Positions 32,845 to 54,327 are shown, numbered from the stretch's first letter. The stretch: DNA of 64,000 bases from Candidatus Oxydemutator sp. (GCA_965203445.1 OZ241883.1:1344001-1408000); one strand, 5' to 3'. Numbers and translations are program-made. Notes: generated by a model from the letters alone, not told the origin.

Positions 32845-32867
32845 GTTTTCGTCTATACTGAAAACCC

Positions 32868-34118
32868 ATGGAAACCTGTCCACGCTGGCAGAAGCCCCTA
32901 GTCCGGCAGGCCCTGCAATATGCCAGAGCGGTATCGTTGTTGGGCGCCCGCCAATGCGGCAAGACTACTTTGGCAAAGATGCTCGCTTCGAGACGGGCGG
33001 AGTTCCGTTCACTGGACGACAGCGAAACTCTGGAGGCGGCGCGCAATGATCCGAAGGAGTTTGTCCGGCACGACAAATCCACGCTGATCATTGATGAATT
33101 TCAGCGTGTCCCGGATTTGCTTCTGGCCGTCAAGCGGGCGGTGGACGAAGACAACCGCCCCGGCCAATTTCTGCTGACCGGTTCGTCAAACATTTTTGCG
33201 TCGCCCGTCGCAATGGACTCTCTGGCCGGGCGGATACGCAGGATACGACTGCGACCTTTGGCGCGGGGCGAAATCAAAAACGTGGCGCCCGGGTTTCTCG
33301 ACGCCGCGTTCAGCCGGTCTTTTGCGGCGGGGAAAATAGCGGCCGCCGAGGATCGCAACCAGCTGCTTGAACTTGCGTTCCGGGGCGGTTTTCCCGAGGC
33401 GGCGAGGCTGGATCATCGTCGCCGTCGGCAATGGCACGACGATTACCTCGAGTCATTGTTGCAACGCGACTTGAGGGATATATCCGGCATCAGGCGCCAC
33501 GGTGTTTTGCAAGCCCTCGTTGCCGCGACCGCGGCCTGGTCCGGAAAGTACATGAACCTCTCGGCGATTCGCTCCGGCCTGTCCATACATCGCGACACCC
33601 TGGAGAGTTGCCTGGAAGCCCTGAGGCTGCTTTATCTCGTCGAACTCTTGCCGCCCTGGACAAAGACCGACTACGCCCAGGTCGGGAAGCGGCGCAAAAT
33701 TTTCATGACGGATTCCGGGCTGATGGCGTCCGTTCTGGGATGGCGATTGGGCGACGCGCGGTTGGGTTCCGACCAGAGCGGCAAGATATTCGAGACCTTC
33801 GTATTCAACGAACTCGCCGCCCAGGCGGACGCCGAAGAGGACAGGCGCTACACGATTTTCCACTACCGCGACCAGAAGAAACGCGAGATTGATTTTTTGA
33901 TCGAGCGCGAGGACGGCGCGTTGCTCGGCATCGAGGTCAAGGCGAGTTCCACCGTCAAAGGAGAAGACTTCAAACACCTGCGGTGGTTTCAGAAAAATTT
34001 GGCCGGCGAGAATGGGTTTTCCGGAGTCGTCTTGTATACCGGAGACCAAGTGTTGTCGTTCGGATCGGGGACGTGGGCGGTGCCGATCGGAGCATTGTGG
34101 ACGCAGTGGCGCCGGTAA
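32868..34118 (+). CDS. AAA_14 + DUF4143 ATPase with C-terminal PD-(D/E)xK nuclease-like domain
   Basis: GARQCGKTT, IIDEFQR, FLLTGSS, DSLAGR, DSGL, EIDFLIE...IEVKAS. Confidence 0.9.
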   Translation: METCPRWQKPLVRQALQYARAVSLLGARQCGKTTLAKMLASRRAEFRSLDDSETLEAARNDPKEFVRHDKSTLIIDEFQRVPDLLLAVKRAVDEDNRPGQFLLTGSSNIFASPVAMDSLAGRIRRIRLRPLARGEIKNVAPGFLDAAFSRSFAAGKIAAAEDRNQLLELAFRGGFPEAARLDHRRRRQWHDDYLESLLQRDLRDISGIRRHGVLQALVAATAAWSGKYMNLSAIRSGLSIHRDTLESCLEALRLLYLVELLPPWTKTDYAQVGKRRKIFMTDSGLMASVLGWRLGDARLGSDQSGKIFETFVFNELAAQADAEEDRRYTIFHYRDQKKREIDFLIEREDGALLGIEVKASSTVKGEDFKHLRWFQKNLAGENGFSGVVLYTGDQVLSFGSGTWAVPIGALWTQWRR

Positions 34119-34174
34119 TCGCAAACACCGATACTCGCAGCACCTGCTGGTGACCGAGACCGCGAAAGCGATTG

Positions 34175-34210
34175 GTGCCCAACGTCTTCTGACATCATAG
34201 TTTCCATTCG
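34175..34210 (-). CRISPR. Solitary degenerate CRISPR repeat
   Basis: Plus strand GTGCCCAACGTCTTCTGACATCATAG versus array GTGCTCAACGCCTTTCGGCATCATAG: 21/26 identical, hairpin preserved. Confidence 0.7.
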
Positions 34211-34321
34211 GCAATCGCTGGCGGTTCGCTTTTGCCAGGAACGGCGACCTTCCGCGTTCCGTATATAAGGGGTATGACCCGGCGAGCGTTCAGCCTTATC
34301 TTCTGAGATCCAACATGCAAA

Positions 34322-35227
34322 TCACTTGGCCGCTTTTGCCGCCTTACCACGAGACGCCCTTTTCTTTATTGGATCGGATTGTGGACGAAAAGTGACGCGC
34401 TTTCGCGATATGCCGTTTTTTACCAGTATCAGGAAATAGGAGTGCTGCTTTCGCGCGTGGTTCTGTTTGACTAATCTGCTCACCGCGGGGGCGTTGGCCC
34501 GGACGAGCACAAACAAATCTTTGCAATAAAAGCCGACGTCCATTGCATAATTGATAATGTCCACGTGAGTCAGGCGCTGCACGTTGGCGCAAACCTGGTC
34601 CTGGCATTTGACGATAAGCGTTCCTTTGTCGGTAAGGATGCGGTTTGCCTCGGAAATGGAGTCGAAATACATCGCGAGAACGGCGTCGTGCCAGCGTGGC
34701 CCCGTTCCCTGCTCTTCGTTGCCGTTTGCGTAGTAATTTCGGAAGCTCACGTGTGTTCCGTTCCCCGCCTTTTCCCCTCGTCCGGCGTTCCGATAAAACC
34801 CTTCCATATAAGGCGGATCGAGCACAACGGCGTCGAAGGAAGCGTCGGCATAAGGGAGCCGGCGACAGTCCGTTCCCGTCGCAATGTCCGAAGGGGTCAG
34901 GTCGTATGCACCCTTCGGGACTTTCCTCCAGAACACGCCTTTTCCGTATGTCACATCGGCGATCTTCGAACCTTCCGGGACGTGCAATCGGAGTATGCTC
35001 GGGAATATATCGGCGTTGCTTCCGACGCAGACGGACGTGACCAGATTGGACGTCGTCTCACCCTGCGGCGGTTTGCGCGTGATGGGTTTCCCCGGCCGGC
35101 GGCGTCGGTCGAGGCAATCGGTGATTCCCAGCCGTAACTGAGGGTTATTGCTTGGGGCGTTTTCCATTGTTTGGCCGGAAGCGGATGCGGCTAAGATATT
35201 GTCCAGAATGTTTCTGGCCCTATACAT
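34322..35227 (-). CDS. Orphan amino-DNA methyltransferase (alternative start 35167)
   Basis: IADVTYGKGVFW (motif I variant), VVLDPPY (motif IV), IVKCQD. Confidence 0.72.
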   Translation of the reverse strand: MYRARNILDNILAASASGQTMENAPSNNPQLRLGITDCLDRRRRPGKPITRKPPQGETTSNLVTSVCVGSNADIFPSILRLHVPEGSKIADVTYGKGVFWRKVPKGAYDLTPSDIATGTDCRRLPYADASFDAVVLDPPYMEGFYRNAGRGEKAGNGTHVSFRNYYANGNEEQGTGPRWHDAVLAMYFDSISEANRILTDKGTLIVKCQDQVCANVQRLTHVDIINYAMDVGFYCKDLFVLVRANAPAVSRLVKQNHARKQHSYFLILVKNGISRKRVTFRPQSDPIKKRASRGKAAKAAK

Positions 35228-35399
35228 ACCTTTCCGTATCGTTGGATGTGTGATTATGGCGTTGCGACCGCTAATCGAATAATAACGTCCAGTGGTTCAT
35301 CCGGTTACCGGCATGGTAATAAAATGGGAAGCCAGACGTAAGCTGCGTCCGTCGCCGACGGTTCCGCGGGCGGGCGGACAATCAACGGAAAACACAGTC

Positions 35400-37169
35400 A
35401 TGCGTTATAGCGACGAGGACATCATTCGCCGGCTGCGCCTGGGCGAGGACAGTGGTTGGGAGTTTCAGCAGGTCGAGTTCAGCGGCAGCTGCCCGAGCAA
35501 GCCGAGCAGGTCCCAATGGGCGGATGAAATTGCGGCGTTCGCCAATGCGAAAGGCGGCGTGCTGCTTTGCGGTGTTACCGACGATGGAGAAGTGCAGGGT
35601 ATGTCGCGTGAGCAGATTGTCGCATTGGACGCTTTCCTGGTCGAAGTGAGCACCGATTCCATCCACCCGCCTGTACGCATCAACACCGAACACAAGGAAT
35701 TGCCCGGCGGCAAACTTCTGTTGGTGGAAATCCCGGAAGGCGATGCGCGGCACGACAGCCCCGGCGGTAGCTACATCCGGACGGGGGCAACGAAGCGAAA
35801 GATGATCGGCGACGAGCGGATGCGCTTGACGCAACGCCGCGGCCAAGCGCGTTTCCGCCGGTTTGATGAGCAGGTCGTGCCGGACACCGGTTTTCACACA
35901 TTGGAGGAAGCGCTTTGGAGGCCCCTGCTGAGCGCTGAGGGAGCGGCCAACCCCGAACCGGCGCTGACAAAGCTGGCGTTGCTGGCGCCCGACGAAGCCG
36001 GCATCGTGCGCGCGACGGTTGCCGGAGTGCTGTTGTGCACCCAGAATCCCGAACAATGGCTCCCCAATGCCGGTATCACGGCCACCCGTTATCGCGGAAA
36101 GGATCGCGCCTCCGGCCAGGTGGACGCGCAGGAAATCGTCGGCCCGCTGAACCGGCAGATTGCGGACGCGGTCGCTTTCGCAATACGCAACATGCACGTT
36201 GCGGCGCGCAAAGAACCGGCCCGCGTGGACATGCCCCAATACAGCGACAAAGCCTTGTTCGAGGCTCTGGTCAACGCCGTGGCGCATCGTGATTACTCGA
36301 TACGCGGCAGCAGGATTCGCCTGTCCATGTTCGACGACCACCTGGAAATCCAGTCGCCCGGGTCGCTGCCGAACAACCTGACCGTGGACAGCATGGAGCA
36401 GCGGCAAGCCACCCGCAATGAAACGCTGACTTCGAGGTTCAGGCGAATGCCGGTGGGGGAGGTCCGGGGTTCGGAAGACCGGCGCTGGTTCATGGAACGT
36501 TGCGGAGACGGCGTTCCGATTATTCTGCGCGAGACCCGAAAACTTTGCGGAAAGCCGCCGCTATACGAGGTGATAGACGAATCGGAAGTGTGCCTGACTA
36601 TTCCCGCGGCGTCACAGGAGCAAAGCGCCGCCCGTGCCGTCGTCACCGTGCGGTGCGCCGGCGATCCGCTGGCCGGTGCCGACGTACTGGCCCTGTTCCC
36701 CAACAACACCTGGAAACGCGCGACGACCGACGAACACGGGGAGGCGGCCCTCGATCTGCATTCCACCCATCTGCCGATGACGGTGTTTGCCGCCGCCGCG
36801 GACCACACCGCCCATGCCCACTACGACTGGACACCCGCAGAGTGCGGGCTTGCTCTCGAATTGGACGCGCTGCCCGACGGCGGCGGCGTCATTTTCCCCG
36901 ACTCGACCGGCACAATTCCGGGAATCAACGGCCGCCTGAACCCGATCCGCGACCCCCACGACCGCACGTATCTGTATGCATCCAACGTCGCCATTGACAA
37001 GGGCCGCCCCCAACCCGTCCATTTCATCCCCGGTGAACCCCTGCGCCTGACCGACGCCGACGGAAACGAAACACAGGTGCGCATCGTCGCGATAGTCGGG
37101 AGGTCGGCGCTGGTGGAGTATCGGGCGTGTTCGGGCGGGGAGGGGGGGGGGGGGGGGGGGGGGGGGTAG
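35400..37169 (+). CDS. AlbA_2 (Schlafen-like) + HATPase_c_4 protein with beta-rich C-terminal domain
   Basis: GEDSGWEFQ, IAAFANAKGGVLLCGVTDDG, EALVNAVAHRDY, IQSPGSLP, RNE. Confidence 0.82.
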   Translation: MRYSDEDIIRRLRLGEDSGWEFQQVEFSGSCPSKPSRSQWADEIAAFANAKGGVLLCGVTDDGEVQGMSREQIVALDAFLVEVSTDSIHPPVRINTEHKELPGGKLLLVEIPEGDARHDSPGGSYIRTGATKRKMIGDERMRLTQRRGQARFRRFDEQVVPDTGFHTLEEALWRPLLSAEGAANPEPALTKLALLAPDEAGIVRATVAGVLLCTQNPEQWLPNAGITATRYRGKDRASGQVDAQEIVGPLNRQIADAVAFAIRNMHVAARKEPARVDMPQYSDKALFEALVNAVAHRDYSIRGSRIRLSMFDDHLEIQSPGSLPNNLTVDSMEQRQATRNETLTSRFRRMPVGEVRGSEDRRWFMERCGDGVPIILRETRKLCGKPPLYEVIDESEVCLTIPAASQEQSAARAVVTVRCAGDPLAGADVLALFPNNTWKRATTDEHGEAALDLHSTHLPMTVFAAAADHTAHAHYDWTPAECGLALELDALPDGGGVIFPDSTGTIPGINGRLNPIRDPHDRTYLYASNVAIDKGRPQPVHFIPGEPLRLTDADGNETQVRIVAIVGRSALVEYRACSGGEGGGGGGGG

Positions 37170-37235
37170 GCGTATGGTTGGCCGATCCTCGGATTGAAAT
37201 CTACACGCCCCCCCCCCCCCCCCCCCCCCCCCCCC
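37142..37235. repeat. G25 tract (37142-37166) and C28 tract (37208-37235), 41 nt apart
   Basis: Read directly; the tracts are mutually complementary. Confidence 0.85.
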
Positions 37236-37266
37236 GGACAACATTATTCGAAATTCCAAATAGGAA

Positions 37267-40200
37267 GTGCTCAACGTCTTTCGGCATCATAGATTGATTT
37301 GCCGCGCCGCGAATCCAGCACACGCCGTCGACCGCATCGGTGCTCAACGCCTTTCGGCATCATAGATTGATTTGCACCAAGTTACACGTGTTGATGTTAT
37401 TACAGGTGCCGTGCTCAACGCCTTTCGGCATCATAGATTGATTTGCTTCCGACACCGGTTCGTTTCCGGCGTGGAACGAGGCGTGCTCAACGCCTTTCGG
37501 CATCATAGATTGATTTGCCGTATTGCCTGTTCTTTTAATATATCTTCTCGAATGTGCTCAACGCCTTTCGGCATCATAGATTGATTTGCCACCGACGCCA
37601 CCGACGCCACCGGCGAACGCCGGGCGGTGCTCAACGCCTTTCGGCATCATAGATTGATTTGCACCGCCACCGGCGACGCCACCGCCGCAGGCGGTGCTCA
37701 ACGCCTTTCGGCATCATAGATTGATTTGCCTCAAAAAATGGCATCTGAGCACGCTTCTCGTGCATGTGCTCAACGCCTTTCGGCATCATAGATTGATTTG
37801 CATAGCAGTCACGGATTGATGTATGCGCCGAAGAAAGTGCTCAACGCCTTTCGGCATCATAGATTGATTTGCACTACCGGAAAAAGAAGAGGACAAAACA
37901 AATGTCCGTGCTCAACGCCTTTCGGCATCATAGATTGATTTGCCCGCCTGCTGTGCGGCGACGGCACCGAGGAGGAGTGGTGCTCAACGCCTTTCGGCAT
38001 CATAGATTGATTTGCCACCGTGGGCGCACCCTCGCCAGCCACCGTCAACGGTGCTCAACGCCTTTCGGCATCATAGATTGATTTGCGCAGGCGCAGCCGG
38101 CTGACGCGCAGATTCTCAAGAGTGCTCAACGCCTTTCGGCATCATAGATTGATTTGCTTGCCCGGCGACGACAGGGCGTTCGCCCAACAAAGCGTGCTCA
38201 ACGCCTTTCGGCATCATAGATTGATTTGCCGCATCGTCGCGCTGTTGATCCTGTCCTGTAATGGCGTGCTCAACGCCTTTCGGCATCATAGATTGATTTG
38301 CTGCAGCTCCCACGACTCCGCGAACAACGACGCGAGTGCTCAACGCCTTTCGGCATCATAGATTGATTTGCCGCATCGTCGCGCTGTTGATCCTGTCCTG
38401 TAATGGCGTGCTCAACGCCTTTCGGCATCATAGATTGATTTGCTGCAGCTCCCACGACTCCGCGAACAACGACGCGAGTGCTCAACGCCTTTCGGCATCA
38501 TAGATTGATTTGCCACCGGCACGTCCGCCGCGAGCACAGAATAATAAGGTGCTCAACGCCTTTCGGCATCATAGATTGATTTGCTACTCGGACGCTAAGG
38601 CGTCTAGAGACCGCTTCGGGTGCTCAACGCCTTTCGGCATCATAGATTGATTTGCATGCGCGTCGGACGGCCTTGCCGCGGCCGGATTCGAGTGCTCAAC
38701 GCCTTTCGGCATCATAGATTGATTTGCGCGCCGCGCGCACGTCCCTGTCGCGGGTGGCTGCGTGCTCAACGCCTTTCGGCATCATAGATTGATTTGCCGG
38801 CGCCGGCCGCTGGAAGGGCCGGGTCACCTTCTCGTGCTCAACGCCTTTCGGCATCATAGATTGATTTGCATGCCGGCGCCCGTGTTCAATTTCAATTTTG
38901 AGATGTGCTCAACGCCTTTCGGCATCATAGATTGATTTGCCAGCTCCACGTTCTCGATTACGGTCGCCGGGTGGCGTGCTCAACGCCTTTCGGCATCATA
39001 GATTGATTTGCACGCGGGTTACCTTAAAAAGCCCGTATCCCGGCGTGTGCTCAACGCCTTTCGGCATCATAGATTGATTTGCTAATAATCCCCGGCATAT
39101 AGGCCCGTGTACGTTTGTGCTCAACGCCTTTCGGCATCATAGATTGATTTGCAGGTAAAGTTCCGAAGCTGATGCCCTCAAAAGGTGGTGCTCAACGCCT
39201 TTCGGCATCATAGATTGATTTGCCTCGATGATGCGGGGGCGGTATTGTCCGTCCCCGTGTGTGCTCAACGCCTTTCGGCATCATAGATTGATTTGCGCGT
39301 TTGGCAGGCGGCCAAATTTTACGCGGCAGAAGTGCTCAACGCCTTTCGGCATCATAGATTGATTTGCCTACAGAACAATGGATAGCCTATACCGGGGATG
39401 TTGTGCTCAACGCCTTTCGGCATCATAGATTGATTTGCACGCTGGGGATTTTTTTGATTGCGCCTGGACGCAAGTGCTCAACGCCTTTCGGCATCATAGA
39501 TTGATTTGCGATGCAAATTTGCATTTGCAAATGGAATCCGTCGGGTGCTCAACGCCTTTCGGCATCATAGATTGATTTGCGCCTCATCGCCAGGCGGGGT
39601 AACGCCAAGCAAGTGTGCTCAACGCCTTTCGGCATCATAGATTGATTTGCTGCGTGAACGTATCACCGGCTATCACCGGCCAAAGTGCTCAACGCCTTTC
39701 GGCATCATAGATTGATTTGCCCGGAATAATGCGTCGTCGCGGTGAATTTGCCGTGCGGTGCTCAACGCCTTTCGGCATCATAGATTGATTTGCTGATTGT
39801 CCAGGTGCCACAAATCGGCGAGGACGAGGTGCTCAACGCCTTTCGGCATCATAGATTGATTTGCCCGAAAAACAGCGCTCCCAGAGTAGATAATACCACT
39901 GTGCTCAACGCCTTTCGGCATCATAGATTGATTTGCACCGGTGATGCGCCCGTGCCTGGCGACGGCCAGGCGTGCTCAACGCCTTTCGGCATCATAGATT
40001 GATTTGCATATTACTGATTTATAATCTAAATTTTACTACCCTAGTGCTCAACGCCTTTCGGCATCATAGATTGATTTGCAATGATTATGATGTGGAGGCC
40101 AGCGCGGATGCCGGTGCTCAACGCCTTTCGGCATCATAGATTGATTTGCGGTGCTCGCGGGCGCGGCGTCCGAGCCAGCGCGAGGTGCTCAACGCCTTTC

Positions 40201-43200
40201 GGCATCATAGATTGATTTGCGCGTCCCGGGCTTCTTTTTGGCCGTCGAACACCAGTGCTCAACGCCTTTCGGCATCATAGATTGATTTGCCAAGAGCCAG
40301 GCAGCCTCAACTTCCTCAAGACCAAGTGCTCAACGCCTTTCGGCATCATAGATTGATTTGCCAGCTTCGGCGCGGGCCTAACTTTAGAACGAGTAAGGTG
40401 CTCAACGCCTTTCGGCATCATAGATTGATTTGCACTTGGACGGTCTGGCACTCATGGAACAGAGCATAGGTGCTCAACGCCTTTCGGCATCATAGATTGA
40501 TTTGCTCCGCGAGGCGATGTCCGGCGCCGGGCGCGTTGTGTGGTGCTCAACGCCTTTCGGCATCATAGATTGATTTGCCTATTATTATCGAGCTTGGACG
40601 GATCACTTGGAAGTGCTCAACGCCTTTCGGCATCATAGATTGATTTGCTCTGGAAATGCTCGATTTTGAACAGGTCAAAAGCGGGTGCTCAACGCCTTTC
40701 GGCATCATAGATTGATTTGCCGACGCCTGCCCTGCCCGCCGATACCGGCGGGCGGTGCTCAACGCCTTTCGGCATCATAGATTGATTTGCGCTATGGAAA
40801 GAATATAAAAAAGTCCGTACATAATGTGTGCTCAACGCCTTTCGGCATCATAGATTGATTTGCAAGGAGAAGAGGAGGACTTCGGGGGGCGTTTCCGTGT
40901 GCTCAACGCCTTTCGGCATCATAGATTGATTTGCCTATGTGTGTTTGGCAGGGATGGTGATGCTTGAAAGGTGCTCAACGCCTTTCGGCATCATAGATTG
41001 ATTTGCAAAGACTATTCTTTTGTAAGGCTTTAATTAGCTGCGTGCTCAACGCCTTTCGGCATCATAGATTGATTTGCTGATCCGCAGCAGCGGCAGGATC
41101 ACCAGTGCCCAAGTGCTCAACGCCTTTCGGCATCATAGATTGATTTGCGTCCGCAGGGTTGTCCACGCCGGCGACATGCTCGAGTGCTCAACGCCTTTCG
41201 GCATCATAGATTGATTTGCGCGCCGGCGGTTTATTCCGCCGACACCTCTATTAGTGCTCAACGCCTTTCGGCATCATAGATTGATTTGCCGAAAGATAAC
41301 CGGCTTGGAAAAATGGTGGTCAGTGTGTGCTCAACGCCTTTCGGCATCATAGATTGATTTGCCCCAAGACAGCGCAATCATTCGAGTCGCCGGGAAGTGC
41401 TCAACGCCTTTCGGCATCATAGATTGATTTGCCGGTCAGGATATGGTTGTTCAAACTCCGGAGCGCGGTGCTCAACGCCTTTCGGCATCATAGATTGATT
41501 TGCATGGATAATTCTTTTGGTGATTTACGCTACGCGGTGTGCTCAACGCCTTTCGGCATCATAGATTGATTTGCTATCGAGAGTTCTTGACCCGTTATTT
41601 CAACGAGCGGTGCTCAACGCCTTTCGGCATCATAGATTGATTTGCATGGTCAAAAACTTTTCCCTGGTACACCCTGCCGCGTGCTCAACGCCTTTCGGCA
41701 TCATAGATTGATTTGCGCGTCCGTGCCGATGGCGTCCATGCCGACGGCGTCGTGCTCAACGCCTTTCGGCATCATAGATTGATTTGCTGCCAGAGTAGTT
41801 GCCAAGCGAGGGCTGATCAGTGCGTGCTCAACGCCTTTCGGCATCATAGATTGATTTGCTGACGGAAAGTGTCGCCAGCGATAAGAGGGAACAGTGCTCA
41901 ACGCCTTTCGGCATCATAGATTGATTTGCAAGACAAAACAAAATTTCAATAAGAATCAAAAACTTAGTGCTCAACGCCTTTCGGCATCATAGATTGATTT
42001 GCCGAGGACAGGAAGATCAACCATAAGCCCGACCGGGTGCTCAACGCCTTTCGGCATCATAGATTGATTTGCTTCATTTATTATTATCATTTATAAGTTT
42101 ATATTATTTGTGCTCAACGCCTTTCGGCATCATAGATTGATTTGCCGCCATTTGACAGGCCTGGTATAATGATAAAGATGGTGCTCAACGCCTTTCGGCA
42201 TCATAGATTGATTTGCATCTTCGTTTTGGGTTTGCCTGGCCCGTGATATTGTGTGCTCAACGCCTTTCGGCATCATAGATTGATTTGCCCTGTAACCGCC
42301 CACTTGCCACATACGCCAGTTCGTGTGCTCAACGCCTTTCGGCATCATAGATTGATTTGCAATACCGCGACCACGGCGCCGCCCTCGATCACGCAGTGCT
42401 CAACGCCTTTCGGCATCATAGATTGATTTGCCGGCGCCATGCCCGGCAGCGTCAGCTCGCCAGTGAGTGCTCAACGCCTTTCGGCATCATAGATTGATTT
42501 GCTTCAAGCACGACGTTCGAGGCGCGCGTCGGCAACGCGTGCTCAACGCCTTTCGGCATCATAGATTGATTTGCGAGGGCTGATCAGTGCCATTGACATC
42601 ATGGCCAGAGTGCTCAACGCCTTTCGGCATCATAGATTGATTTGCCTGACCAAAAGGAACAAGCCCAAGCGATCTAGTGCGTGCTCAACGCCTTTCGGCA
42701 TCATAGATTGATTTGCATGCCGGAACGTATCACCGGCAATCAGCGGGAAAAGTGCTCAACGCCTTTCGGCATCATAGATTGATTTGCCGCCGTCTTTGTC
42801 GGTTCGTTCGGAAAGGACACTGCGTGCTCAACGCCTTTCGGCATCATAGATTGATTTGCGAGCGCTTGTCGTCAAAATCGTCCTTCAACACGGGTGCTCA
42901 ACGCCTTTCGGCATCATAGATTGATTTGCGTCCAGATACACACCATATATCGAATCGTTGTCAATGTGCTCAACGCCTTTCGGCATCATAGATTGATTTG
43001 CCTCATGAACATCAAGAGGAATAAAGAACGAAGTAGTGCTCAACGCCTTTCGGCATCATAGATTGATTTGCTCTCGCCAAGACGCTCGAAAGGAAAGCCG
43101 GAAAGATGTGCTCAACGCCTTTCGGCATCATAGATTGATTTGCCCCATGCAGGCCCTGAACACCGCGCCCACATCGGCTATGTGCTCAACGCCTTTCGGC

Positions 43201-45567
43201 ATCATAGATTGATTTGCCAGCGCGCGGCGCCACGGCGCGACCCCGAGGTCGCGGTGCTCAACGCCTTTCGGCATCATAGATTGATTTGCGCTGGTAGCCA
43301 CTCCACCCGCTCCAGGAGCCGACAGAGTGCTCAACGCCTTTCGGCATCATAGATTGATTTGCGCTGTTGTGCGGGATCGCCGTGCCTATCCGGGCTTGTG
43401 CTCAACGCCTTTCGGCATCATAGATTGATTTGCGCCGGACGATGCAGGTAACCGGCGGTTATTACAGGTGCTCAACGCCTTTCGGCATCATAGATTGATT
43501 TGCTCGTTGTTGGCGTTGCGCGCGAGGTAACTTTCCAGTGCTCAACGCCTTTCGGCATCATAGATTGATTTGCGCGCTCTGGCAAAATCGGGGGTAATGG
43601 GAGTACCGCGTGCTCAACGCCTTTCGGCATCATAGATTGATTTGCTCGCGCCGTACGGCAGGGCGGCGCCGACCGGGCGGTGCTCAACGCCTTTCGGCAT
43701 CATAGATTGATTTGCTGACTTCGCGCGCGCGCGCGTGTATCCTGATGCAGTGCTCAACGCCTTTCGGCATCATAGATTGATTTGCAAGGAGGTGCAGTGA
43801 TGGCCCGGATGAATTATCGAGAGTGCTCAACGCCTTTCGGCATCATAGATTGATTTGCAATAATAGCCCTCATTTTTCGCACACCAACTGTCCGTGCTCA
43901 ACGCCTTTCGGCATCATAGATTGATTTGCTTGCCGGTGGCATTGGCAGCGGTTTTGGTAGCGCGTGCTCAACGCCTTTCGGCATCATAGATTGATTTGCA
44001 CGATTGCGCGAACCTTTACCTCTACCTCGTCTAGGGTGCTCAACGCCTTTCGGCATCATAGATTGATTTGCGTCCTCTTGGCGTTCTGGTGTGAGGAGCT
44101 TGGAAGGTGCTCAACGCCTTTCGGCATCATAGATTGATTTGCTCGCATCTCTGACATAAGCACAAAAGAGTGGCACAAGTGCTCAACGCCTTTCGGCATC
44201 ATAGATTGATTTGCCGCGTTACGCGGTTTTGATAAACGGGGTTATCACTATGTGCTCAACGCCTTTCGGCATCATAGATTGATTTGCGTAGGCAAATGTT
44301 TTTCATCAGTTATCAATATCATAGTGCTCAACGCCTTTCGGCATCATAGATTGATTTGCTGCGTGGCGCTATGGAGATGATTGCGCGCGGTGCTGTGCTC
44401 AACGCCTTTCGGCATCATAGATTGATTTGCCCCCGATACCCTGAACAGGCGCCATGGGCGCCCCATGTGCTCAACGCCTTTCGGCATCATAGATTGATTT
44501 GCCACCCCGCAGGTAATCACGGGCATAGTAGCGAATAGTGCTCAACGCCTTTCGGCATCATAGATTGATTTGCATGTTTCAACATGGGAGTAGTTTTGAA
44601 GATAGAAGTGCTCAACGCCTTTCGGCATCATAGATTGATTTGCAGGCAAAAAGTAAAACTTACCAGCGATCTCTGGTGGTGCTCAACGCCTTTCGGCATC
44701 ATAGATTGATTTGCGTACCGCCAGCCATGCTTCTCCGCGCTGCCGACATGTGCTCAACGCCTTTCGGCATCATAGATTGATTTGCACGGTAACCCTCGAA
44801 CACCTTAAGGCGCTCGACTAGTGCTCAACGCCTTTCGGCATCATAGATTGATTTGCACACGATGCGCGACCGTCTCAACAGAGAGCTGAGGTGCTCAACG
44901 CCTTTCGGCATCATAGATTGATTTGCACGATTGCGCGCACCCTTACCTTTACCTCGTCTAGGGTGCTCAACGCCTTTCGGCATCATAGATTGATTTGCCA
45001 CCTCGCGCTCCAGGCCGTCGATTCGGTCCGCGGTGTGCTCAACGCCTTTCGGCATCATAGATTGATTTGCTCGGTTTTGTGCTGTTCGAGGACATCACGC
45101 GAGAGTGCTCAACGCCTTTCGGCATCATAGATTGATTTGCTCGCGCAGCCGCGAGGCCGCCCAGATCGGCGAATTGTGCTCAACGCCTTTCGGCATCATA
45201 GATTGATTTGCCGAGATGGGCGCCGTCTCGGCCGCCCGCCAAGACACGTGCTCAACGCCTTTCGGCATCATAGATTGATTTGCCAGGGTTGATACGCTTG
45301 AAAATACGCTTTTCAAGTTGTGCTCAACGCCTTTCGGCATCATAGATTGATTTGCTTCGGCCCCGAGGGCTCGTTCATAAACCGCTGGTTGTGCTCAACG
45401 CCTTTCGGCATCATAGATTGATTTGCCTGCTGGACGTCGGATTCGACACCATAGGCGTCGAGTGCTCAACGCCTTTCGGCATCATAGATTGATTTGCAAT
45501 ACGCCGCGCGTTAATCATTGATAAAATCAATGTGCTCAACGCCTTTCGGCATCATAGATTGATTTGC
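37267..45567 (-). CRISPR. CRISPR array, 117 repeats / 116 spacers (hand count); 36-nt repeat GCAAATCAATCTATGATGCCGAAAGGCGTTGAGCAC in transcribed orientation
   Basis: Near-invariant repeat with spacers of about 31-38 nt; variant repeat at 37267 marks the trailer; AT-rich leader next to cas2; 3' TTGAGCAC handle typical of I-B/MYXAN repeats. Confidence 0.99.
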
Positions 45568-45817
45568 AGACCCTTTTTATCTGATTGAAACCAGTGGACT
45601 TTTTTTCATAGTTTTCAAGCTTCTGATTCATCATGGTAACACACTACCCTTTTCTTAAGAGTTCCGTAAAAGAAGTTTTTTGATTATCTGATAGCTATAG
45701 TAGTTCATGCATGTACATCCTTAACAAGAGAGCCAAAGTATTTTGAAAGTTTTATGTATTTTCTTTCCTGCGTAGAGAAGTAGCGACTCCAGCAAGTGAT
45801 CCATGACTCACACAATA
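45568..45817 (-). promoter_or_regulatory. CRISPR leader
   Basis: AT-rich non-coding region between cas2 stop and first repeat. Confidence 0.8.
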
Positions 45818-46102
45818 TCATAGAATTTCAAAGCGCGGCGGTGCCTCGGTCCAGATTTCCTTGTTGCGTCTCTCGATCACCCGGCTTTGTGGCGCAAGCC
45901 GAATGATCAGCAGATCGTCTTCCTCAGCCAGTATTTTTTCCAACTCCCAACGAAGTGCTTCCATTTGAGTAGCAGTGAAATGGCAACGGAACAATGAGTA
46001 TTGAAGCCATTCGCCATTTCCACGCATGTGCTTGTATACCTGTCGCCAGCGGCGTTGATCGCGGATGTCGTAGCTGAACAGATACCAGTGTCTATCACTC
46101 AT
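45818..46102 (-). CDS. cas2: CRISPR endonuclease Cas2
   Basis: YLFSYDIRD..RWR, GEWLQYSLFRC; ATG at 46102. Confidence 0.95.
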   Translation of the reverse strand: MSDRHWYLFSYDIRDQRRWRQVYKHMRGNGEWLQYSLFRCHFTATQMEALRWELEKILAEEDDLLIIRLAPQSRVIERRNKEIWTEAPPRFEIL

Positions 46103-46104
46103 AG

Positions 46105-47739
46105 TTATCGAATCCGCAACTTCGCAAAGTTTCCACCTTGCTCGCTCCATTCCTTCTCGAGAAGTCGCGCCTCCAGTTCAATCGTGCGAGCATAACTCAG
46201 TGAATAGTTCAACACGGGATGCTTCCATGTTTCCTGCTTACGGCTTTCGTACAGTTCAATCGCCTGCCGCCGCCCCTCATCAGAAAGCCAAACCTGCTGC
46301 TTGGTAACGTTGAAGTGCCGTTGCCTCCATTGGCGGCGGTTGATGGATGCGACCAAAGCCATGTCCCAAAGCAACACTCGGAATATTTCCATTAAATCCA
46401 GCGCCAGAGGATGTGCCGCGCTACGTGGCGTGTGAAAGAATCCGAGAGTGGAGTCTAACCCGACTACGATAATGGCAGCCATGACGTCCCGATACAACAA
46501 CGCATAACCGAAAGATAGCGCTGCATTGAAAGCGTCTTGCGGAGGACGGCGCGTTCTGCCTGGAAACGACATCAGATCGTCATCGTCGGTTTGCAGCAGG
46601 CAAGCCAGCGCCTCGAAGTACGATCGCGCTGCTACGCCTTCACATCCCCGCAGCATGTCCACTTCCTCACATTGCCCCACTGCACGAATCTGGCTGCGCA
46701 GCATGTTCATTTGAATCTTGATGTCGTCTTTTTTGTTTTTGACACGCGCACTGCGAGCAAGAAAGCGCAGCTGGTTCTCAATTTTGGCCAGTGCCGTTCG
46801 CCGAGATAATTGAATCCGCAACGACCGATCCGTCAGAGCACGGTATTGGCGCAAACGGCGTTGCACTCCCGGTGGCGAATTGATGCCACCTACGTAGCGG
46901 CCGCCGCCACTGAGCCAATGCACCGCCACGTTTTCAGCGACCGCAAAGTGAATAGCCTGGGCGCTGATCTGGGTGTTGCCGTGCAGGATAATAGCGCCCA
47001 CGTCCTTGCCCGGAAACTTGATCGCTTCCCCTTCCACCGGTTTGACTACGAATTGCAGGCCACTACGGACAACCCGGCTGCCGACTTCCGTGATATGCAG
47101 GGTACGCCGTTCCTCGTGTTTGGGGAATAGTCGCTTGGGCTTTTTCGCAGCGTCTGCGTCCGCCTCCTGCTGAAAACGTTCTTCTTCCGGCAAACATACC
47201 GGTGCCAGAGAGCACTTGGCGCACAGGTTTTCATTGGTTGTGATGGGTGGCCGCTCAATTTTCCCAGATAACTCGCGGGCGCGACTGATAGTTCGACGCA
47301 ACTTTTCTCGGGCTTCATCATCTATCGTTACGCGAATCGTTTTGTTGTTAGCGTGGTAACGGATGCGTCCTTCGGTAACCGGTTTGTCAAAATGTTCGGA
47401 AAGCAAGACCGCATAAGCGATGACTTGTAGTTTGTCGGTGTCCCAGGCATCGTCGCCTTTGGAGCGTCCACGCTTATGCTCTACGGCAATCAACTTGCCG
47501 TCCCGATAGCGCGCAAAATCCACCTTGCCGCGAATTCCCCATTCATTGCTTTTCAACTCGATGCTTTGCCATTCGCGGTTTTTGTCTATTTCAACTTCGT
47601 GCAGCGTGCGACCGGCATAGACGCGCTTGTCTGCAATACGGATTTCTTCTACTTCTTCTAAATAAAACAGGCGCTCGCAGTACTCGAGCGCATGGAGTGC
47701 CATGACGCGCGTCAGTGTAGTATTGGAATCCAGAGGCAT
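46105..47739 (-). CDS. cas1: Cas4-Cas1 fusion (MYXAN type)
   Basis: RVMALHALEYCERLFY, GKVD, EHKRG, CAKCSLAPVC; EGVAARSYF, RRPPQD..NAALSFGY, GFFH, LDLME. Confidence 0.95.
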   Translation of the reverse strand: MPLDSNTTLTRVMALHALEYCERLFYLEEVEEIRIADKRVYAGRTLHEVEIDKNREWQSIELKSNEWGIRGKVDFARYRDGKLIAVEHKRGRSKGDDAWDTDKLQVIAYAVLLSEHFDKPVTEGRIRYHANNKTIRVTIDDEAREKLRRTISRARELSGKIERPPITTNENLCAKCSLAPVCLPEEERFQQEADADAAKKPKRLFPKHEERRTLHITEVGSRVVRSGLQFVVKPVEGEAIKFPGKDVGAIILHGNTQISAQAIHFAVAENVAVHWLSGGGRYVGGINSPPGVQRRLRQYRALTDRSLRIQLSRRTALAKIENQLRFLARSARVKNKKDDIKIQMNMLRSQIRAVGQCEEVDMLRGCEGVAARSYFEALACLLQTDDDDLMSFPGRTRRPPQDAFNAALSFGYALLYRDVMAAIIVVGLDSTLGFFHTPRSAAHPLALDLMEIFRVLLWDMALVASINRRQWRQRHFNVTKQQVWLSDEGRRQAIELYESRKQETWKHPVLNYSLSYARTIELEARLLEKEWSEQGGNFAKLRIR

Positions 47740-47755
47740 CTATGAACACGTTAAC

Positions 47756-48487
47756 CTATGCCATATTATTTGGGGTGATACAAATCCAATACTTTTCTTC
47801 TTGCGGTCTTTGGGGTAGCGGCATGGGGTCAGAAAGTGAAAAGGTTTCAATGCGGGATTTGTTCTCCTCTGAATAGTCCACCCAAACGGGCATAGTTAAA
47901 AAACCACCATCGTCTTTTTGTAAAAACCGCCCTTCGTCATGAGGTGTTTTTTCTCGAATTTCGTTGACAAGATGCGAAGACTCGCCGAGGGATAGACCGC
48001 CATAGCGTACAATGCTGCCTCGCGTACCTGGATCCAAGGCGTTGCGGATATTTTGCACTATGCGATCTGCGTTCTCTCCCACTTGTTCATCTTTTTCATC
48101 TGCATCACGTACCCATACCCAAAATTTCAACCATAAGACTAGTTCTTGGTAGTCGGGACGGCGCCCGAGGTAGTCTCGTTGCTCCCATTGCTTATGTTCT
48201 TCAGTGTTGCTTCGGTCTGGTTCTTTTGGGGATTGCGGAACGCGCCGAAATTTGCGAAATATTTTTGTGCGTCCTATCGCGCCGTTGTCATAGGAACTTT
48301 CCGCGATAGCTATAGAAAGTTGTACGTCCTTGAACTTCTCTTTCTCGTCTCTCTCCGTTCCGATGAGTGAAAGCAGCATTCCAAAAACAGTAGATGGCGG
48401 TGGTGCAGGAAAGCTCTCCTGATATTCTCGTGCCCAACGCGGACGAAATCCTGCCATCGGCACATCTACATACAGTGAAAGTATCAT
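47756..48487 (-). CDS. cas5: Cas5 (DevS/Cmx5-like)
   Basis: FRPRWAREYQESFPAPPPSTVFGMLLSLIG, RPDYQEL, RYGGLSLGES. Confidence 0.92.
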   Translation of the reverse strand: MILSLYVDVPMAGFRPRWAREYQESFPAPPPSTVFGMLLSLIGTERDEKEKFKDVQLSIAIAESSYDNGAIGRTKIFRKFRRVPQSPKEPDRSNTEEHKQWEQRDYLGRRPDYQELVLWLKFWVWVRDADEKDEQVGENADRIVQNIRNALDPGTRGSIVRYGGLSLGESSHLVNEIREKTPHDEGRFLQKDDGGFLTMPVWVDYSEENKSRIETFSLSDPMPLPQRPQEEKYWICITPNNMA

Positions 48488-48507
48488 TTGACGTTATTCT
48501 TGGGTAT

Positions 48508-49434
48508 TTAGGCAGACAATTTTTCGCCTGCCTTTTTCACTGCCATCTTCACACCGCTTGTGACAGTCGCCCCTTTTTCCTCTAACTCATCAAAGCCAGC
48601 CACAGAGATGTTCGCTGTAATAATCAATTCTCGCGCTGGAATATCTGAATCATTATCACCAGACATTTCCACAAGTCGAGGAATGCTAACGTCGCCACGA
48701 TCTTCGTCTTGCTCAAAACAGTACAGAAATCGTGGTGCGGGGTCGCTGGTAATGCGCAGCACTACTGCCGCTGCTGAGTAGTCGGCAAAATAACGTGCAT
48801 GTGCCCCGCCTACTCTTCGCAGGGATACAAGTCCATTCAATGTCTTACACACTCTTTCAACTATCTCTTCTGGTTGGTGCCTGCTTTCACCGTTATTGCC
48901 TTCGCGTCCAATAGCGTCGGGAGTTAGGGCGAAACCGAATTGATAGCGTGTGTGATGCACCTCAACGGCATGAGGGTGGGGCGATGCACTTTTTTTAAGT
49001 TTGCCTTCTTTTTCATAGTCTGAACTTACGTTTGTGCCAGGAGAGGCAAAATTGTTCATCGTTTCACCGCGCCACGGAGTAACAGAAATTGCTCGGGTGA
49101 CTTCCAGGGGCGCGCGTCGTGCACGTGTGGGGTTGTCCGCCCGCATAAAGCCGAGCAAATCGTCATCAAGACGAGCTTGCCACTTACCTTCGGCAAACTC
49201 TGTGTCACTATATTTTGATTTACTGTGATCTGGCATCGTACGGTTCAGGGTTTCGCCGGCAAACTGCCAACCCTCACGTAAGGCATAACGTATTGCTTCT
49301 GCCGATACAGTAGTCCACTGGTCGCCGTTACGAAATACTTTTTGCAAGTTTGAGGTAACGCCCTCCCCTTCGCCACGATTGTTGGAAAAAGTGCCCTCCT
49401 GCGTGAGCACCATACCGAAAATGTGTGTCGCCAT
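48508..49434 (-). CDS. cas7: Cas7 (DevR-like)
   Basis: NNRGEGEG, TTVSAEAIRYALR, DDDLLGFM, EVHHTRYQFGF, VGGAHARY. Confidence 0.92.
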   Translation of the reverse strand: MATHIFGMVLTQEGTFSNNRGEGEGVTSNLQKVFRNGDQWTTVSAEAIRYALREGWQFAGETLNRTMPDHSKSKYSDTEFAEGKWQARLDDDLLGFMRADNPTRARRAPLEVTRAISVTPWRGETMNNFASPGTNVSSDYEKEGKLKKSASPHPHAVEVHHTRYQFGFALTPDAIGREGNNGESRHQPEEIVERVCKTLNGLVSLRRVGGAHARYFADYSAAAVVLRITSDPAPRFLYCFEQDEDRGDVSIPRLVEMSGDNDSDIPARELIITANISVAGFDELEEKGATVTSGVKMAVKKAGEKLSA

Positions 49435-49905
49435 TTATATTGCCTCCTTGGTTTTGTTTTTGTTGGCAAGCCGGCCATCGGTAAAAGTGATAAGCGCGAG
49501 TAATGCCAAGTCACGTGCTTTTGCATAGTCATGCCTGTCGTTTAGCATCCCCCACATCATGGTGGATAACTCGTTGCCGCTACCGTCTTCTTGCCAGAAT
49601 AGCAATCCGCCTGCATGTTCTTCGCCACCATCTGTTTTCAACTTCCTGTGACGCGAGTTTGCTTCGGCTAGTAGGCCAACGATTGTCGCACGGCAGAGTG
49701 GCTGCGTTTTTGCGCTATTCAGTTTGCGGCGAACTTCATCCACTTTGTCATCCCACCTTTCGCGCAGCGATCGTCCGCCCCCTCTCTTAGCGGCAAACTC
49801 CTCTTCATTAAGCATCCGCCGAAACGCGCGGTGGAATACACCCTGAACTAGTTTATGGTCTTCTGTTTCGCCCCAAATACCACTGTCCTTTTTTGTTAGT
49901 TTCAT
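49435..49905 (-). CDS. cas11: Probable Cas11 small subunit from an in-frame internal start in cas8 (156 aa)
   Basis: Minus strand GAGAGGAG-AGAACTT-ATG giving MKLTKKDSGIWGETEDHKLVQGVFHRAFRR. Confidence 0.65.
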   Translation of the reverse strand: MKLTKKDSGIWGETEDHKLVQGVFHRAFRRMLNEEEFAAKRGGGRSLRERWDDKVDEVRRKLNSAKTQPLCRATIVGLLAEANSRHRKLKTDGGEEHAGGLLFWQEDGSGNELSTMMWGMLNDRHDYAKARDLALLALITFTDGRLANKNKTKEAI

Positions 49906-51198
49906 AAGTTCTCTCCTCTCATATTTGATGAGTTTATCAAACCAGAAATGTTCTGGAGACATATCGCGTGGTGTCTTTTCACGGATTTCGTCTCCATGCC
50001 AAAATGGTATGTACGCCAATTCGCGGTACCAGTTATACCCTTTCAGCAAATTGGCTGCTATACGCTCACGACAACTTGGCAAACTTATAAATGATGGTTT
50101 TCCATTTTGTTGTACTCGCACGGTTTTAGTTGCTGGGAAAATACGGTTAAAACAGCGGTATTTGTTGACTGCTTCATATGCAGCGGCTGGCGAGAACCGT
50201 AAGTGGCTTTTGCGCACATTCTGGCTTGAGTAATGGGACACTTGTCCCATTACTATCGCTAATACTTCAGTGCTGTCAGTTTTCGCTAATTTTACACCTG
50301 TCAAGTATCGTAATGTGGCGTCTTCTAAACCAGCCACTTCGCTTTGAAATGGCCAATTTGCTGAGGTTACGGAATGCCGTAATACGCTTTTGTGGAATGT
50401 TGATAACGACCGGACCTGCGGAACGATGAACGCCCAGTTGGATTTCATCTTATCTTTTACTTTGGTGTTAGGTAATTTTATGAAGTGGCATGCCAATGGT
50501 GCAAATGCGAGCAAAAAACAAATACTAGCAAATCCTTTCCATTGCTGTTCTTTTTTCCCGAAGCGGGGTGCGGAACCAGGGTAAATCCATGAAGCAAGCT
50601 CATCAACTGTATGGGATGAGGTAAATTCATTATTTTGCAATATCTTTTTCCCACAATTTTTCCAATATGCTAACTCGGCACCGCAGTTGATAGAAGCATA
50701 CCGAAGAGAAAACGGTCTATCTTCGTCATAGTATTCTGTTTTTACTTCTGGCTTTTTTGCCTTGATATTCGTTCCTTTTGGCTTAGTAATGCTTTTACCA
50801 TGCTGTAAGAAAGTACTAAGCAACCCATTATGCGTCGGCAGGCGCAAGTAGTAGTTATCGAAGTGTGTCTGTTTGCGGTGTACCGCAGGCAGGAACAAAA
50901 CCCCGTCATGTACCTGCCACGCCCAACGTATTATTCTGTCAAAGGAATCAGCAGTTTTATCTGTATCATGCCAGTCTAATTTCACTGCAATATCACCTTT
51001 TGGAAAATCCCAATGCACATTCTCTTTCAGTTCTTTTGCTTGCCTCTTAGCCGGCGATTCTAGAAGGGCAGAATCCCAGATATCCGCTGCCGTAAGGGAC
51101 ATGTATAAGCCAGCCAATCCGGCCCGTTCATATTCTCCCATACCGGGATCATTCAGTGCCCATGTATAAGACGTGAGTGCTGGTGTTTTCTTAGTCAT
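49435..51198 (-). CDS. cas8: Cas8 large subunit (MYXAN/I-B type)
   Basis: DPGMGEYERAGLAGLYMSL N-terminus; position between cas3 and cas7; ATGA overlap with cas3 stop. Confidence 0.85.
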   Translation of the reverse strand: MTKKTPALTSYTWALNDPGMGEYERAGLAGLYMSLTAADIWDSALLESPAKRQAKELKENVHWDFPKGDIAVKLDWHDTDKTADSFDRIIRWAWQVHDGVLFLPAVHRKQTHFDNYYLRLPTHNGLLSTFLQHGKSITKPKGTNIKAKKPEVKTEYYDEDRPFSLRYASINCGAELAYWKNCGKKILQNNEFTSSHTVDELASWIYPGSAPRFGKKEQQWKGFASICFLLAFAPLACHFIKLPNTKVKDKMKSNWAFIVPQVRSLSTFHKSVLRHSVTSANWPFQSEVAGLEDATLRYLTGVKLAKTDSTEVLAIVMGQVSHYSSQNVRKSHLRFSPAAAYEAVNKYRCFNRIFPATKTVRVQQNGKPSFISLPSCRERIAANLLKGYNWYRELAYIPFWHGDEIREKTPRDMSPEHFWFDKLIKYERRELMKLTKKDSGIWGETEDHKLVQGVFHRAFRRMLNEEEFAAKRGGGRSLRERWDDKVDEVRRKLNSAKTQPLCRATIVGLLAEANSRHRKLKTDGGEEHAGGLLFWQEDGSGNELSTMMWGMLNDRHDYAKARDLALLALITFTDGRLANKNKTKEAI

Positions 51199-53522: not shown

Positions 53523-54166
53523 TTCCTTCTTTCCTCCGTTGGCAAAAACACCCCGCATCCCACCCGTCGCCGTCCGCCAATTCCCTTTTCTTGTAAGCGA
53601 ATGGATTCTTCTGCCGTCAGTTCCGTTACCAGCATGGAATAGCCGACGATGGTTTTGCTGCCGACGCGAAATACGCGGCGGCCATGGTTGCGGTCTGCAT
53701 TGCCTGCATTCTGCCTGGAAGGGATCCGTAGTGGCTTGCCATGGATCTCCAGCGCTTCCAGCTGGCGCTGTATTTCCGCGTCAAAACGCTCAACGTCTTC
53801 GCCATTCCTGGTAGTAACAATGCGGGCATACAGTGTAGCCGCCGGTATCAGCGCGACACTTCGGCTGACTCCAACTCTCACGGGGCAACCATCCAGTTCG
53901 ATTCTCTTGCCCGCCAGTTTCAAGGCCTTCGGCAGAAGTTCCGCCGGCATCCGCATCCCCAAGCGTGCGTTATCTGACAGCAGCAGTTTTCCATGGCCAT
54001 CATGGGCACCGCGTATCAGATGAAGCCCGACGTCGAGGTTGCCGTGTAACCATTGATCACTCGGCGATTCCAGTATCCGCGAAGCTGCACTGAAAAGCGC
54101 ATAGCCATGGTCCAGCGGGACTTGCTTCCCTGTTACCGTAAAAAATATATCAACTATTCTTTTCAT
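53519..54166 (-). CDS. cas6: Cas6 (Cmx6/MYXAN type)
   Basis: VPLDHGYALFSA, LQEKGIGGRRRVGCGVF Gly-rich loop. Confidence 0.93.
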   Translation of the reverse strand: MKRIVDIFFTVTGKQVPLDHGYALFSAASRILESPSDQWLHGNLDVGLHLIRGAHDGHGKLLLSDNARLGMRMPAELLPKALKLAGKRIELDGCPVRVGVSRSVALIPAATLYARIVTTRNGEDVERFDAEIQRQLEALEIHGKPLRIPSRQNAGNADRNHGRRVFRVGSKTIVGYSMLVTELTAEESIRLQEKGIGGRRRVGCGVFLPTEERRK

Positions 54167-54327
54167 GGTAGAACTTACCTTACAATGATTATTGTATCAG
54201 ACAGCGCTCTCAGCTTCTTGTATGAGGCCACCACATTCTGGACAAATGAGGGAGTTGTTTTCAGGTGGCTTGGCGCGGGGTGATATTCTCCCCGTCCAGG
54301 ATTTTTCTGGCTTTATACAGTGATTTT

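Follow-up and report, generated by a model that had tools for sequence, protein, structure and literature searches.

Why does a single, degenerate copy of a CRISPR repeat, whose stem is changed on both arms and still pairs and whose handle is kept almost whole, lie by itself beyond the trailer end of an otherwise uniform array? An earlier note on this DNA had offered two answers, either a regulatory or decoy RNA loaded into Cascade, or the old end of the array cut off by an insertion. The window (the whole stretch of 64,000 nucleotides that was analysed, G000:C1:1344001-1408000) belongs to Candidatus Oxydemutator sp., whose genome of 2.38 Mb and 63.6% GC forms a single contig. Comparing the sequences, we conclude that this pseudo-repeat is probably a decayed and truncated fossil repeat, left behind by a rearrangement at the trailer end of the array. 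The unit and the CRISPR-Cas system that it resembles are laid out in the window as follows.

34175..34200, minus strand: pseudo-repeat core, 26 nt, corresponding to the hairpin and the 8-nt 5' handle of the repeat; in crRNA sense CTATGATGTCAGAAGACGTTGGGCAC
37267..45567, minus strand: CRISPR array with 117 repeats (36 nt each) and 116 spacers (31-38 nt)
37267..37302, minus strand: terminal (trailer-end) repeat, with C11T on the plus strand and a C-A mismatch in the stem
45568..45817, minus strand: AT-rich leader, from cas2 to the first repeat
45818..54166, minus strand: type I-B (MYXAN) cas genes cas2, cas4-cas1, cas5, cas7, cas8, cas3 and cas6 (Pfam)

All the repeats of the array are identical except the copy at 37267. 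PADLOC names the effector Cas8a1/Csx13 MYXAN or Cas8b and the processing protein Cas6 MYXAN, the cas6 gene being located at 53519-54166. The crRNA is read from right to left, with 37267 as the trailer end, because the G-U stem pair exists only on the minus strand and because the leader and the minus-strand cas genes agree with this direction. Thirty-one AT-rich bases adjoin the repeat at 37267 and could be the original trailer of the array. Inside the array, a 142-nt block of two repeat-spacer units is exactly duplicated at 38194-38477, so that two spacers are doubled. Three spacers (44215-44251, 44431-44466 and 44999-45034) have partial matches in a single 2-kb region of this genome (28/37, 23/36 and 29/36), which lies outside the window at about 140320-142487 of G000:C1 and shows a 5' ATG flank at two of the three sites; this region may be an escaped prophage remnant, and a copy of an insertion sequence (IS) lies near it, at 144959. 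When 8,000 array bases (37561-45560) were compared with 50,697 phage records, just four weak matches came out, with E values of 0.06 to 0.7.

On the plus strand, 34175-34200 reads GTGCCCAACGTCTTCTGACATCATAG, against GTGCTCAACGCCTTTCGGCATCATAG in the array repeat, and 21 of the 26 positions are identical. The count is 23/29 over 29 nt and 25/36 over the full 36 nt, and it reaches 24/29 when the comparison is made with the trailer repeat, with which the pseudo-repeat has in common a T at plus-strand position 11 (T11). The unit stands on the strand of the array, 3.1 kb beyond its trailer end, and has no companion. The earlier note, which had described a solitary unit about 3 kb outside the array, matching the first 26 nt of the repeat at 21 positions and sharing T11 with the repeat at 37267, is thus borne out on each of these points. 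Over both strands of the 2,378,814-base genome, the pseudo-repeat is the top match outside the array and the runner-up reaches 19/26. From base composition, matches of at least 21/26 are expected 0.016 times per genome and 3.4e-5 times within 5 kb of the array on either side on the same strand. The shuffle test that the note had proposed gave one block-shuffled window in 200 reaching 21/26. With a covariance model for which 19 family repeats, but not the pseudo-repeat, served as training set, the unit scored 20.2 bits (E 0.003) in positions 1-37250 of the window, where the next match had 8.4 bits; over the whole genome its E value was 0.19 and the next match had 15.4 bits. A resemblance arising by chance, with no historical link to the array, is scarcely credible: the genome-wide E value of just 0.19 and the one successful shuffled window speak for it, but the expected numbers of matches, above all so near the array and on the same strand, speak against it, as do a stem formed in register and a derived base common with the terminal repeat, a coincidence that has by our own arithmetic a chance of about 5/26 x 1/3 = 0.06. 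On these comparisons the pseudo-repeat is related to the array. The likeness is limited to 26 nt (positions 11-36 of the covariance model), and the ten bases standing where the 5' part of the repeat belongs are probably the other side of a junction. The elements in and around the unit, and the folds of the three kinds of repeat, are listed here.

34139..34174, minus strand: guide position, the 36 nt after the handle, which also contains the left arm of the inverted flanks
34182, minus strand: predicted start of the 5' handle in crRNA sense, reading UUGGGCAC...
34201..34210, minus strand: ten bases unlike the repeat (4/10 identical); the model alignment stops at position 11
34212..34226, no strand assigned: right arm of the inverted flanks, CAATCGCTGGCGGT (inverted repeat I3, 8/8)
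Canonical repeat folded alone: 6-bp hairpin, -7.8 kcal/mol
Terminal repeat at 37267 folded alone: hairpin lost, -2.8 kcal/mol
Pseudo-repeat folded alone: same hairpin, in register, -5.2 kcal/mol

In crRNA sense, the hairpin of the array repeat, ATGCC-GAAA-GGCGT, becomes ATGTC-AGAA-GACGT in the pseudo-repeat: a C-G pair is replaced by U-A through changes on both arms, and the 6-bp hairpin stays in register. The handle reads TTGAGCAC in the array and TTGGGCAC in the pseudo-repeat, with seven of eight bases kept. The comparison of the three folds leads us to read the pseudo-repeat as carrying the mutation of the trailer repeat plus a second change that repairs the pair; the odds that one of the four further substitutions restores the broken pair are about 5% by our own arithmetic. 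Two features of crRNA-like regulatory RNAs, a stem-loop and conserved 3' terminal bases, are therefore present in the pseudo-repeat. The unit is also enclosed by inverted flanks (AGCGATTG/CAATCGCT, 8/8, plus ACCGC/GCGGT), whose duplex of -19.2 kcal/mol was equalled at 3.0% of 5000 random places in the genome and whose pairing is beaten by one pair of array spacers. All three traits had been pointed out earlier, and the swapped stem pair and the nearly intact handle were recovered as described, as were the flanks, which are only mildly unusual. When 71 nt of context are folded (-25.2 kcal/mol, z -2.81), the favoured structure pairs the handle with the upstream flank and the Cas6 hairpin is not formed; in another fold, the handle with its 8 nt, a further 16 nt and a hairpin of 25 nt amount to about 49 nt.

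The surroundings of the pseudo-repeat are those of a genomic hotspot. The genes and scars between which it lies are the following.

32868..34118, plus strand: AAA_14/DUF4143 ATPase gene (Pfam; PADLOC PDC-S01, a candidate defence family, E 2.3e-142), left border of the island
34322..35227, minus strand: phage-type DNA methyltransferase gene (Pfam N6_N4_Mtase), likely true start M21 at 35167
35186..35226, plus strand: solo right inverted repeat (IRR) of a decayed IS of about 835 nt with DDE/rve remnants
35292..37169, plus strand: AlbA_2/HATPase_c_4 gene (Pfam), whose reading frame enters the polyG tract
37142..37235, no strand assigned: palindrome of polyG(25), a 41-nt core and polyC(28), between AlbA_2 and the array
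54218..54292, plus strand: left inverted repeat (IRL) of this decayed IS with roughly 45 nt more of it, located between cas6 and HNH
54328..55104, plus strand: HNH_2 endonuclease gene (Pfam; PADLOC HNH, E 2.4e-79), right border of the island

In a genome of the same genus (G001), synteny holds up to the DUF4143 gene and the HNH gene resumes about 600 bp later. Because these two genes stand so close together there, we read 34119-54327 as a variable island of 20 kb, bordered by two conserved genes of defence type, with the pseudo-repeat 57 nt inside its left edge. The DUF4143 gene is found at 74% DNA identity in three same-genus genomes, with synteny in G001, and the HNH gene at 71% in G001, which holds at this hotspot (L003:2894-3454) one small low-GC reading frame of about 186 aa in place of the CRISPR island. 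None of 40 relatives carries any copy of the array repeat, and the three same-genus DUF4143 loci contain nothing repeat-like, the top match being 18/29. The module of DUF4143 ATPase and methyltransferase on which the earlier note had built is not sustained, since the former is a conserved gene of the genus and the latter a phage-type gene of the variable island. The window also contains, directly upstream of the DUF4143/PDC-S01 start, five tandem 23-nt units of two alternating kinds (...CTGACG; 32730-32844), which look like iteron or operator sites, and its segments 2001-5000 and 8001-10000 have a GC content of 45-52% against 64% for the genome and may be a second foreign island.

The pseudo-repeat follows the stop codon of the methyltransferase by 112 nt, on the same strand. 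The methyltransferase shows about 50% identity over aa 50-278 to those of Mycobacterium phages, and its relatives include 24 viral loci with up to 58% identity, plus one 59-residue match at 63%, and 80 metagenome loci with up to 64%. The idea that its reading frame is truncated, which came from coverage of positions 2-124 of the 221 of the Pfam profile, was dropped because the phage homologues cover aa 50-278, as for a full-length protein. No other phage genes adjoin it, and the setting is that of a chromosomal island. The first 40 nt of the IS end (35186-35225) are identical to the ends of five longer copies and of one other solo end in the genome, and 54218-54292 shows 88% identity, along its 75 nt, to the left IS end. 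These right and left ends bracket the AlbA_2 gene, the array as well as the cas genes, in the order that two direct, now almost wholly deleted IS copies would give, and the CRISPR-Cas block may once have been a unit resembling a composite transposon. The AlbA_2 gene has about 70% DNA identity to copies in G010, G013 and G032. Among the 12 runs of at least 14 G or C in the genome, the only inverted pair is that at 37142-37235, which could be an assembly effect. Overall, the DNA on the array's trailer side is a mosaic of scars and foreign segments.

Contigs from public sequencing runs allowed us to compare related strains over the same region. One contig of X3 is colinear over 32809-35780, including the arrangement of the unit, and about 96% identical (109 differences and 6 gaps); this colinearity argues that the region is not lost quickly. 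In X4, the aligned pieces of the methyltransferase region, each of 188-262 nt, differ by 2-7 bases, and one low-depth contig of 432 nt aligns with the window from 34200 rightwards only, and the 176 nt with which it begins have no match anywhere in 32000-37300. As we calculate from the depth table, 33974-34199 is covered by none of the other contigs of X4. Since this break coincides with the end of the repeat likeness, the single low-depth contig suggests that 34200/34201 is a junction. In X9, which is about 91% identical, a contig joins 34121 to 34364, skipping 242 nt, and several small deletions are found within the tandem units of 32730-32844. Among the strains compared, none with an uninterrupted array from 37267 to the pseudo-repeat was found. 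The comparison with relatives that the earlier note had recommended thus gave a mixed picture of conservation: the locus is kept in X3, replaced or unalignable in X4 and skipped in X9, and the 40 relatives have no repeat to compare.

Does the locus have the other parts that a working crRNA-like gene would need? The note had reported no convincing second pseudo-repeat or target, and our model scan and our searches of the genome and of promoters came to the same outcome. With filters off, the covariance model detected no second pseudo-repeat in 1-37250 or 45570-64000 and no match at E <= 10 near 34104-34139 or 34247-34282. No direct repeats at spacer-length spacing lie beside the pseudo-repeat, and the next model match (the one of 8.4 bits) has an E value of 2. 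The PAM, ATG, was deduced only from the flanks of two of the three partial self-protospacers (141.4-142.5 kb of G000) and from the target of a mini-array in another genome (L025, see below). The best target of the guide position in the genome matches at 26 of 36 positions and lacks an ATG or TTG flank, as do all of the 12 other seed matches, and exact matches in viral contigs numbered zero. Six promoter regions were considered, namely those upstream of the methyltransferase, DUF4143 and cas6 genes, the leader, the gap between AlbA_2 and the trailer, and the local intergenic region; the best match to the guide was 12 of 20 counted positions, and 37-96% of shuffled guides did equally well. For the guide position, the search for ATG-flanked seeds in promoters that had been proposed returned none. 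We also considered, and dropped for want of a supporting pair of guide and target, a mini-ORF resembling CreT at 34275-34307 (MTRRAFSLIF, two Arg codons side by side).

Over 33900-35400, a simple consensus scan found no sigma-70-like promoter, and no site resembling an intrinsic terminator was found there either. Because the pseudo-repeat comes 112 nt behind the methyltransferase stop in sense orientation, and no site like a terminator separates the two, it is probably transcribed by read-through from that gene. It stands outside the cas operon: cas2 is 11.6 kb away and the start of cas6 about 20 kb. If such a unit accompanied this methyltransferase as a rule, it would be seen at homologous loci; we scanned 100 of 106 loci (2 from genomes, 24 viral and 74 of the 80 from metagenomes, with L139-L144 left out) and found no unit of this repeat family, the best E value being 0.78.

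The repeat family itself is informative about what solitary units can be. A pattern scan for the repeat and the unit, with one genome per species, turned up 18 loci, which belong to Acidobacteriota, Latescibacterota, Clostridia, Deinococcota, Planctomycetota and other groups. Hairpin and handle, 26 nt together, are invariant across the family genomes, partly by construction of the pattern, and the first 10 nt vary; the T-A stem variant of the pseudo-repeat occurs at none of the 18 genome loci and in no metagenome contig. Several loci have single units, and at L019 the unit is beside a Cas6 gene. In a member of the Pyrinomonadaceae (L025:1865-2100), a two-unit mini-array is located between a PD-(D/E)XK gene and WYL-cas6, upstream of the latter, and its spacer matches at 19 of 24 positions a 5' ATG-flanked site 126 nt upstream; by analogy, this fits a CreR-type autoregulator. 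On one chromosome of the Trueperaceae (L027/L028), a solitary full repeat lies among housekeeping genes, flanked by rsmB and a peptidase gene, and a stump of two repeats beside a cas1 fragment is 8 kb away; a system of the same family has decayed there and left its repeats dispersed. A viral contig (L037:2001-2495, with the same element in L038) carries three degenerate units with short spacers and, about 290 nt away, a lone perfect 26-nt unit, which make it a candidate viral mini-array or RNA anti-CRISPR. The family thus gives both true regulatory mini-arrays and plain debris, and the pseudo-repeat is without the marks of the regulatory kind.

How might a fossil of this form have been produced? 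Most likely, the pseudo-repeat would once have stood at the last or the next-to-last place in an ancestral array whose end came just behind the DUF4143 gene. Some 3 kb of foreign DNA would then have been placed between it and the rest of the array, bringing the phage-type methyltransferase, an IS of which the end alone is left, the AlbA_2 gene and the polyG/polyC palindrome, and one junction at 34200/34201 would have let only the part with hairpin and handle survive. The compensated stem could date from service as a Cas6 site at the array end, under past selection, or could have arisen at once by template switching within the hairpin; template switching in quasi-palindromes can change both arms of a stem in one step. 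We infer both this order of events and that the pseudo-repeat is not processed today. Integration of the Campbell type through an element's own repeat mimic was also considered and is not favoured, because a single crossover does not give a pattern in which T11 is in both flanking repeats and the other changes in the left one only.

The shared strand, T11, the intervening foreign DNA with its IS scars and the loss of likeness at what is probably a strain-variable junction are best read as the severed end of an array, and for these reasons the note's insertion reading is the better supported of its two. The orientation of the array and a derived base of its end repeat are both found in the pseudo-repeat, foreign genes and IS ends intervene, all of 34119-54327 is absent from G001, and fragmented arrays do occur in the repeat family, as the stump and solitary repeat of the Trueperaceae show. 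The main point against a fossil is that the stem is repaired on both arms and seven of eight handle bases are kept, which would be expected under selection for Cas6 recognition; besides, the array's own terminal repeat has lost the hairpin that the pseudo-repeat kept, transcription behind the methyltransferase is probable and X3 is colinear. The complementary flanks, which would then have to lie on the two sides of a junction, are awkward, although only mildly unusual (p about 0.03), and the support from X4 is one low-depth contig. If the 31 AT-rich bases after the repeat at 37267 are the original trailer, they speak against an origin from the end of this array and for an older array or another source. 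A remnant of something else, either the stump of an earlier related array at the DUF4143-HNH hotspot or a Racr-type mimic that came with the mobile element of the methyltransferase, is possible, if unlikely. It would suit a hotspot that holds a different small low-GC gene in G001, a stretch running from AlbA_2 to cas6 between the IRR and IRL of one IS, which looks as though it had come in as one piece on the right-hand side of the pseudo-repeat, and a methyltransferase of phage type; viral contigs (L037, L038) carry units of the family, functional divergence would keep the stem by paired changes, and, according to the part of PMC10651486 used here, host repeats are mimicked by the solitary repeat units that mobile elements carry, which can adjoin the downstream side of a gene. 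T11 points instead to the same array, the T-A stem variant was found neither at the 18 genome loci nor in metagenome contigs, the methyltransferase has no other phage genes beside it, and the X4 homology, which starts at 34200, separates the 26-nt unit from the methyltransferase segment.

That the unit works today is quite unlikely. Cas6 would bind and cut a read-through RNA from the methyltransferase gene that contains the hairpin and handle, and the product would be loaded into Cascade as a crRNA-like regulator, of the CreA, CreR or CRISIS kind, or would occupy Cas6 and Cas7 as a decoy. A hairpin in register, a handle kept at seven of eight bases, the sense orientation closely behind the methyltransferase stop without an intervening terminator-like site and the colinear X3 contig would all agree with it, as would the true mini-array that the family forms in L025 (spacer 19/24, ATG flank). 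As far as the portion of bioRxiv 10.1101/2024.12.27.630466 consulted goes, CRISIS units also lie directly behind the gene that they supervise, and the I-C crlRNAs measure 49-50 nt, close to the 8 + 16 + 25 nt of the alternative fold. Against this stand a guide position without a PAM-flanked target in the genome, promoter regions matched no better than by shuffled guides, the lack of a second repeat and of a promoter-like site, a place outside the cas operon, a context fold in which the handle pairs with the upstream flank instead of leaving the Cas6 hairpin, the replaced or unalignable region of X4 and the skipped one of X9, and the 100 homologous methyltransferase loci without a unit of the family. 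The regulatory or decoy RNA of the earlier note is therefore not supported. In a particular form of this idea, a live unit in the 3' UTR of the phage-type orphan methyltransferase would be cut by Cas6, tying the stability or dose of the mRNA to CRISPR, or would give a one-repeat crRNA-like RNA with an outside target, for example a phage; we regard this as decidedly unlikely. A bolder variant would make repeat-like units at array ends landing pads that capture foreign cargo beside CRISPR arrays. Chance remains very unlikely, and the fossil repeat of a rearranged trailer end is the reading that we retain.

Taken alone, such a fossil matters little, being one more case of an array that frays at its trailer end, and it also illustrates the part that IS elements and captured phage genes play in the rebuilding of defence islands. 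It cautions against calling a solitary repeat a regulatory RNA solely because its hairpin is compensated and its handle intact. What discriminates a relic from CreA, CreR or a crlRNA is a target, a partner repeat, the position and the conservation across strains, of which the first three are negative here and the last is mixed. The side results on the repeat family are perhaps more useful than the pseudo-repeat itself, since this I-B (MYXAN) family is widespread, with solitary units in several phyla and in viral contigs and at least one clear mini-array with a target.

These distinctions can be set against the systems already described. Ectopic, partly degraded copies of repeats have been attributed to ongoing generation and loss (Shmakov et al. 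2023, PMC10120712), and, in the passages of that study drawn on here, standalone repeats are like the pseudo-repeat in being a single, partly degraded stretch of at least 16 bp outside an array with an active-looking system. The functional subset in the same passages consists of two-unit I-B mini-arrays near cas6 with a PAM-flanked target in a cas promoter, whereas the pseudo-repeat is one unit, beyond the trailer, for which no target was found. CreA, CreR, the CRISIS crlRNAs and the Shmakov mini-arrays have, in the parts of the sources concerned (PMC9458426, PMC10120712, 10.1101/2024.12.27.630466), a stemmed repeat-like unit with a conserved handle, usually a second degraded repeat (most CreA and CreR, while it is not required of CRISIS units), and a guide that matches, seed first, a PAM-flanked promoter of a cas or neighbouring gene. 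To the same extent of these sources (PMC9458426, 10.1101/2024.12.27.630466), the pseudo-repeat resembles CreA, CreR and crlRNAs as a degenerate ectopic repeat with a stem-loop and handle bases, behind a non-cas gene and on its strand, but differs from them in having neither a PAM-flanked promoter match, nor a second repeat, nor a location in the cas operon. With Racr, as presented in the portion of Camara-Wilpert et al. 2023 (PMC10651486) relied on, it has in common that it is solitary and intergenic, mimics the repeat of the host subtype and lies beside a phage-type gene; it differs in its setting, a defence island of the chromosome where other phage genes, a promoter-like site in the consensus scan and a recognised anti-CRISPR gene are all lacking. 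As a Racr, it would act against the cell's own system. The closest likeness in layout is to degenerate terminal repeats and split arrays, the pseudo-repeat being on the trailer side, in the same orientation, mutated, and with a mutation common to the last repeat. Terminal repeats usually decay in the stretch that follows the hairpin, and a degenerate end repeat of the family (L023) has the handle TTGAAAAT with such decay, whereas the pseudo-repeat keeps its handle and misses the other end. For this reason, truncation fits the pseudo-repeat better than slow decay.
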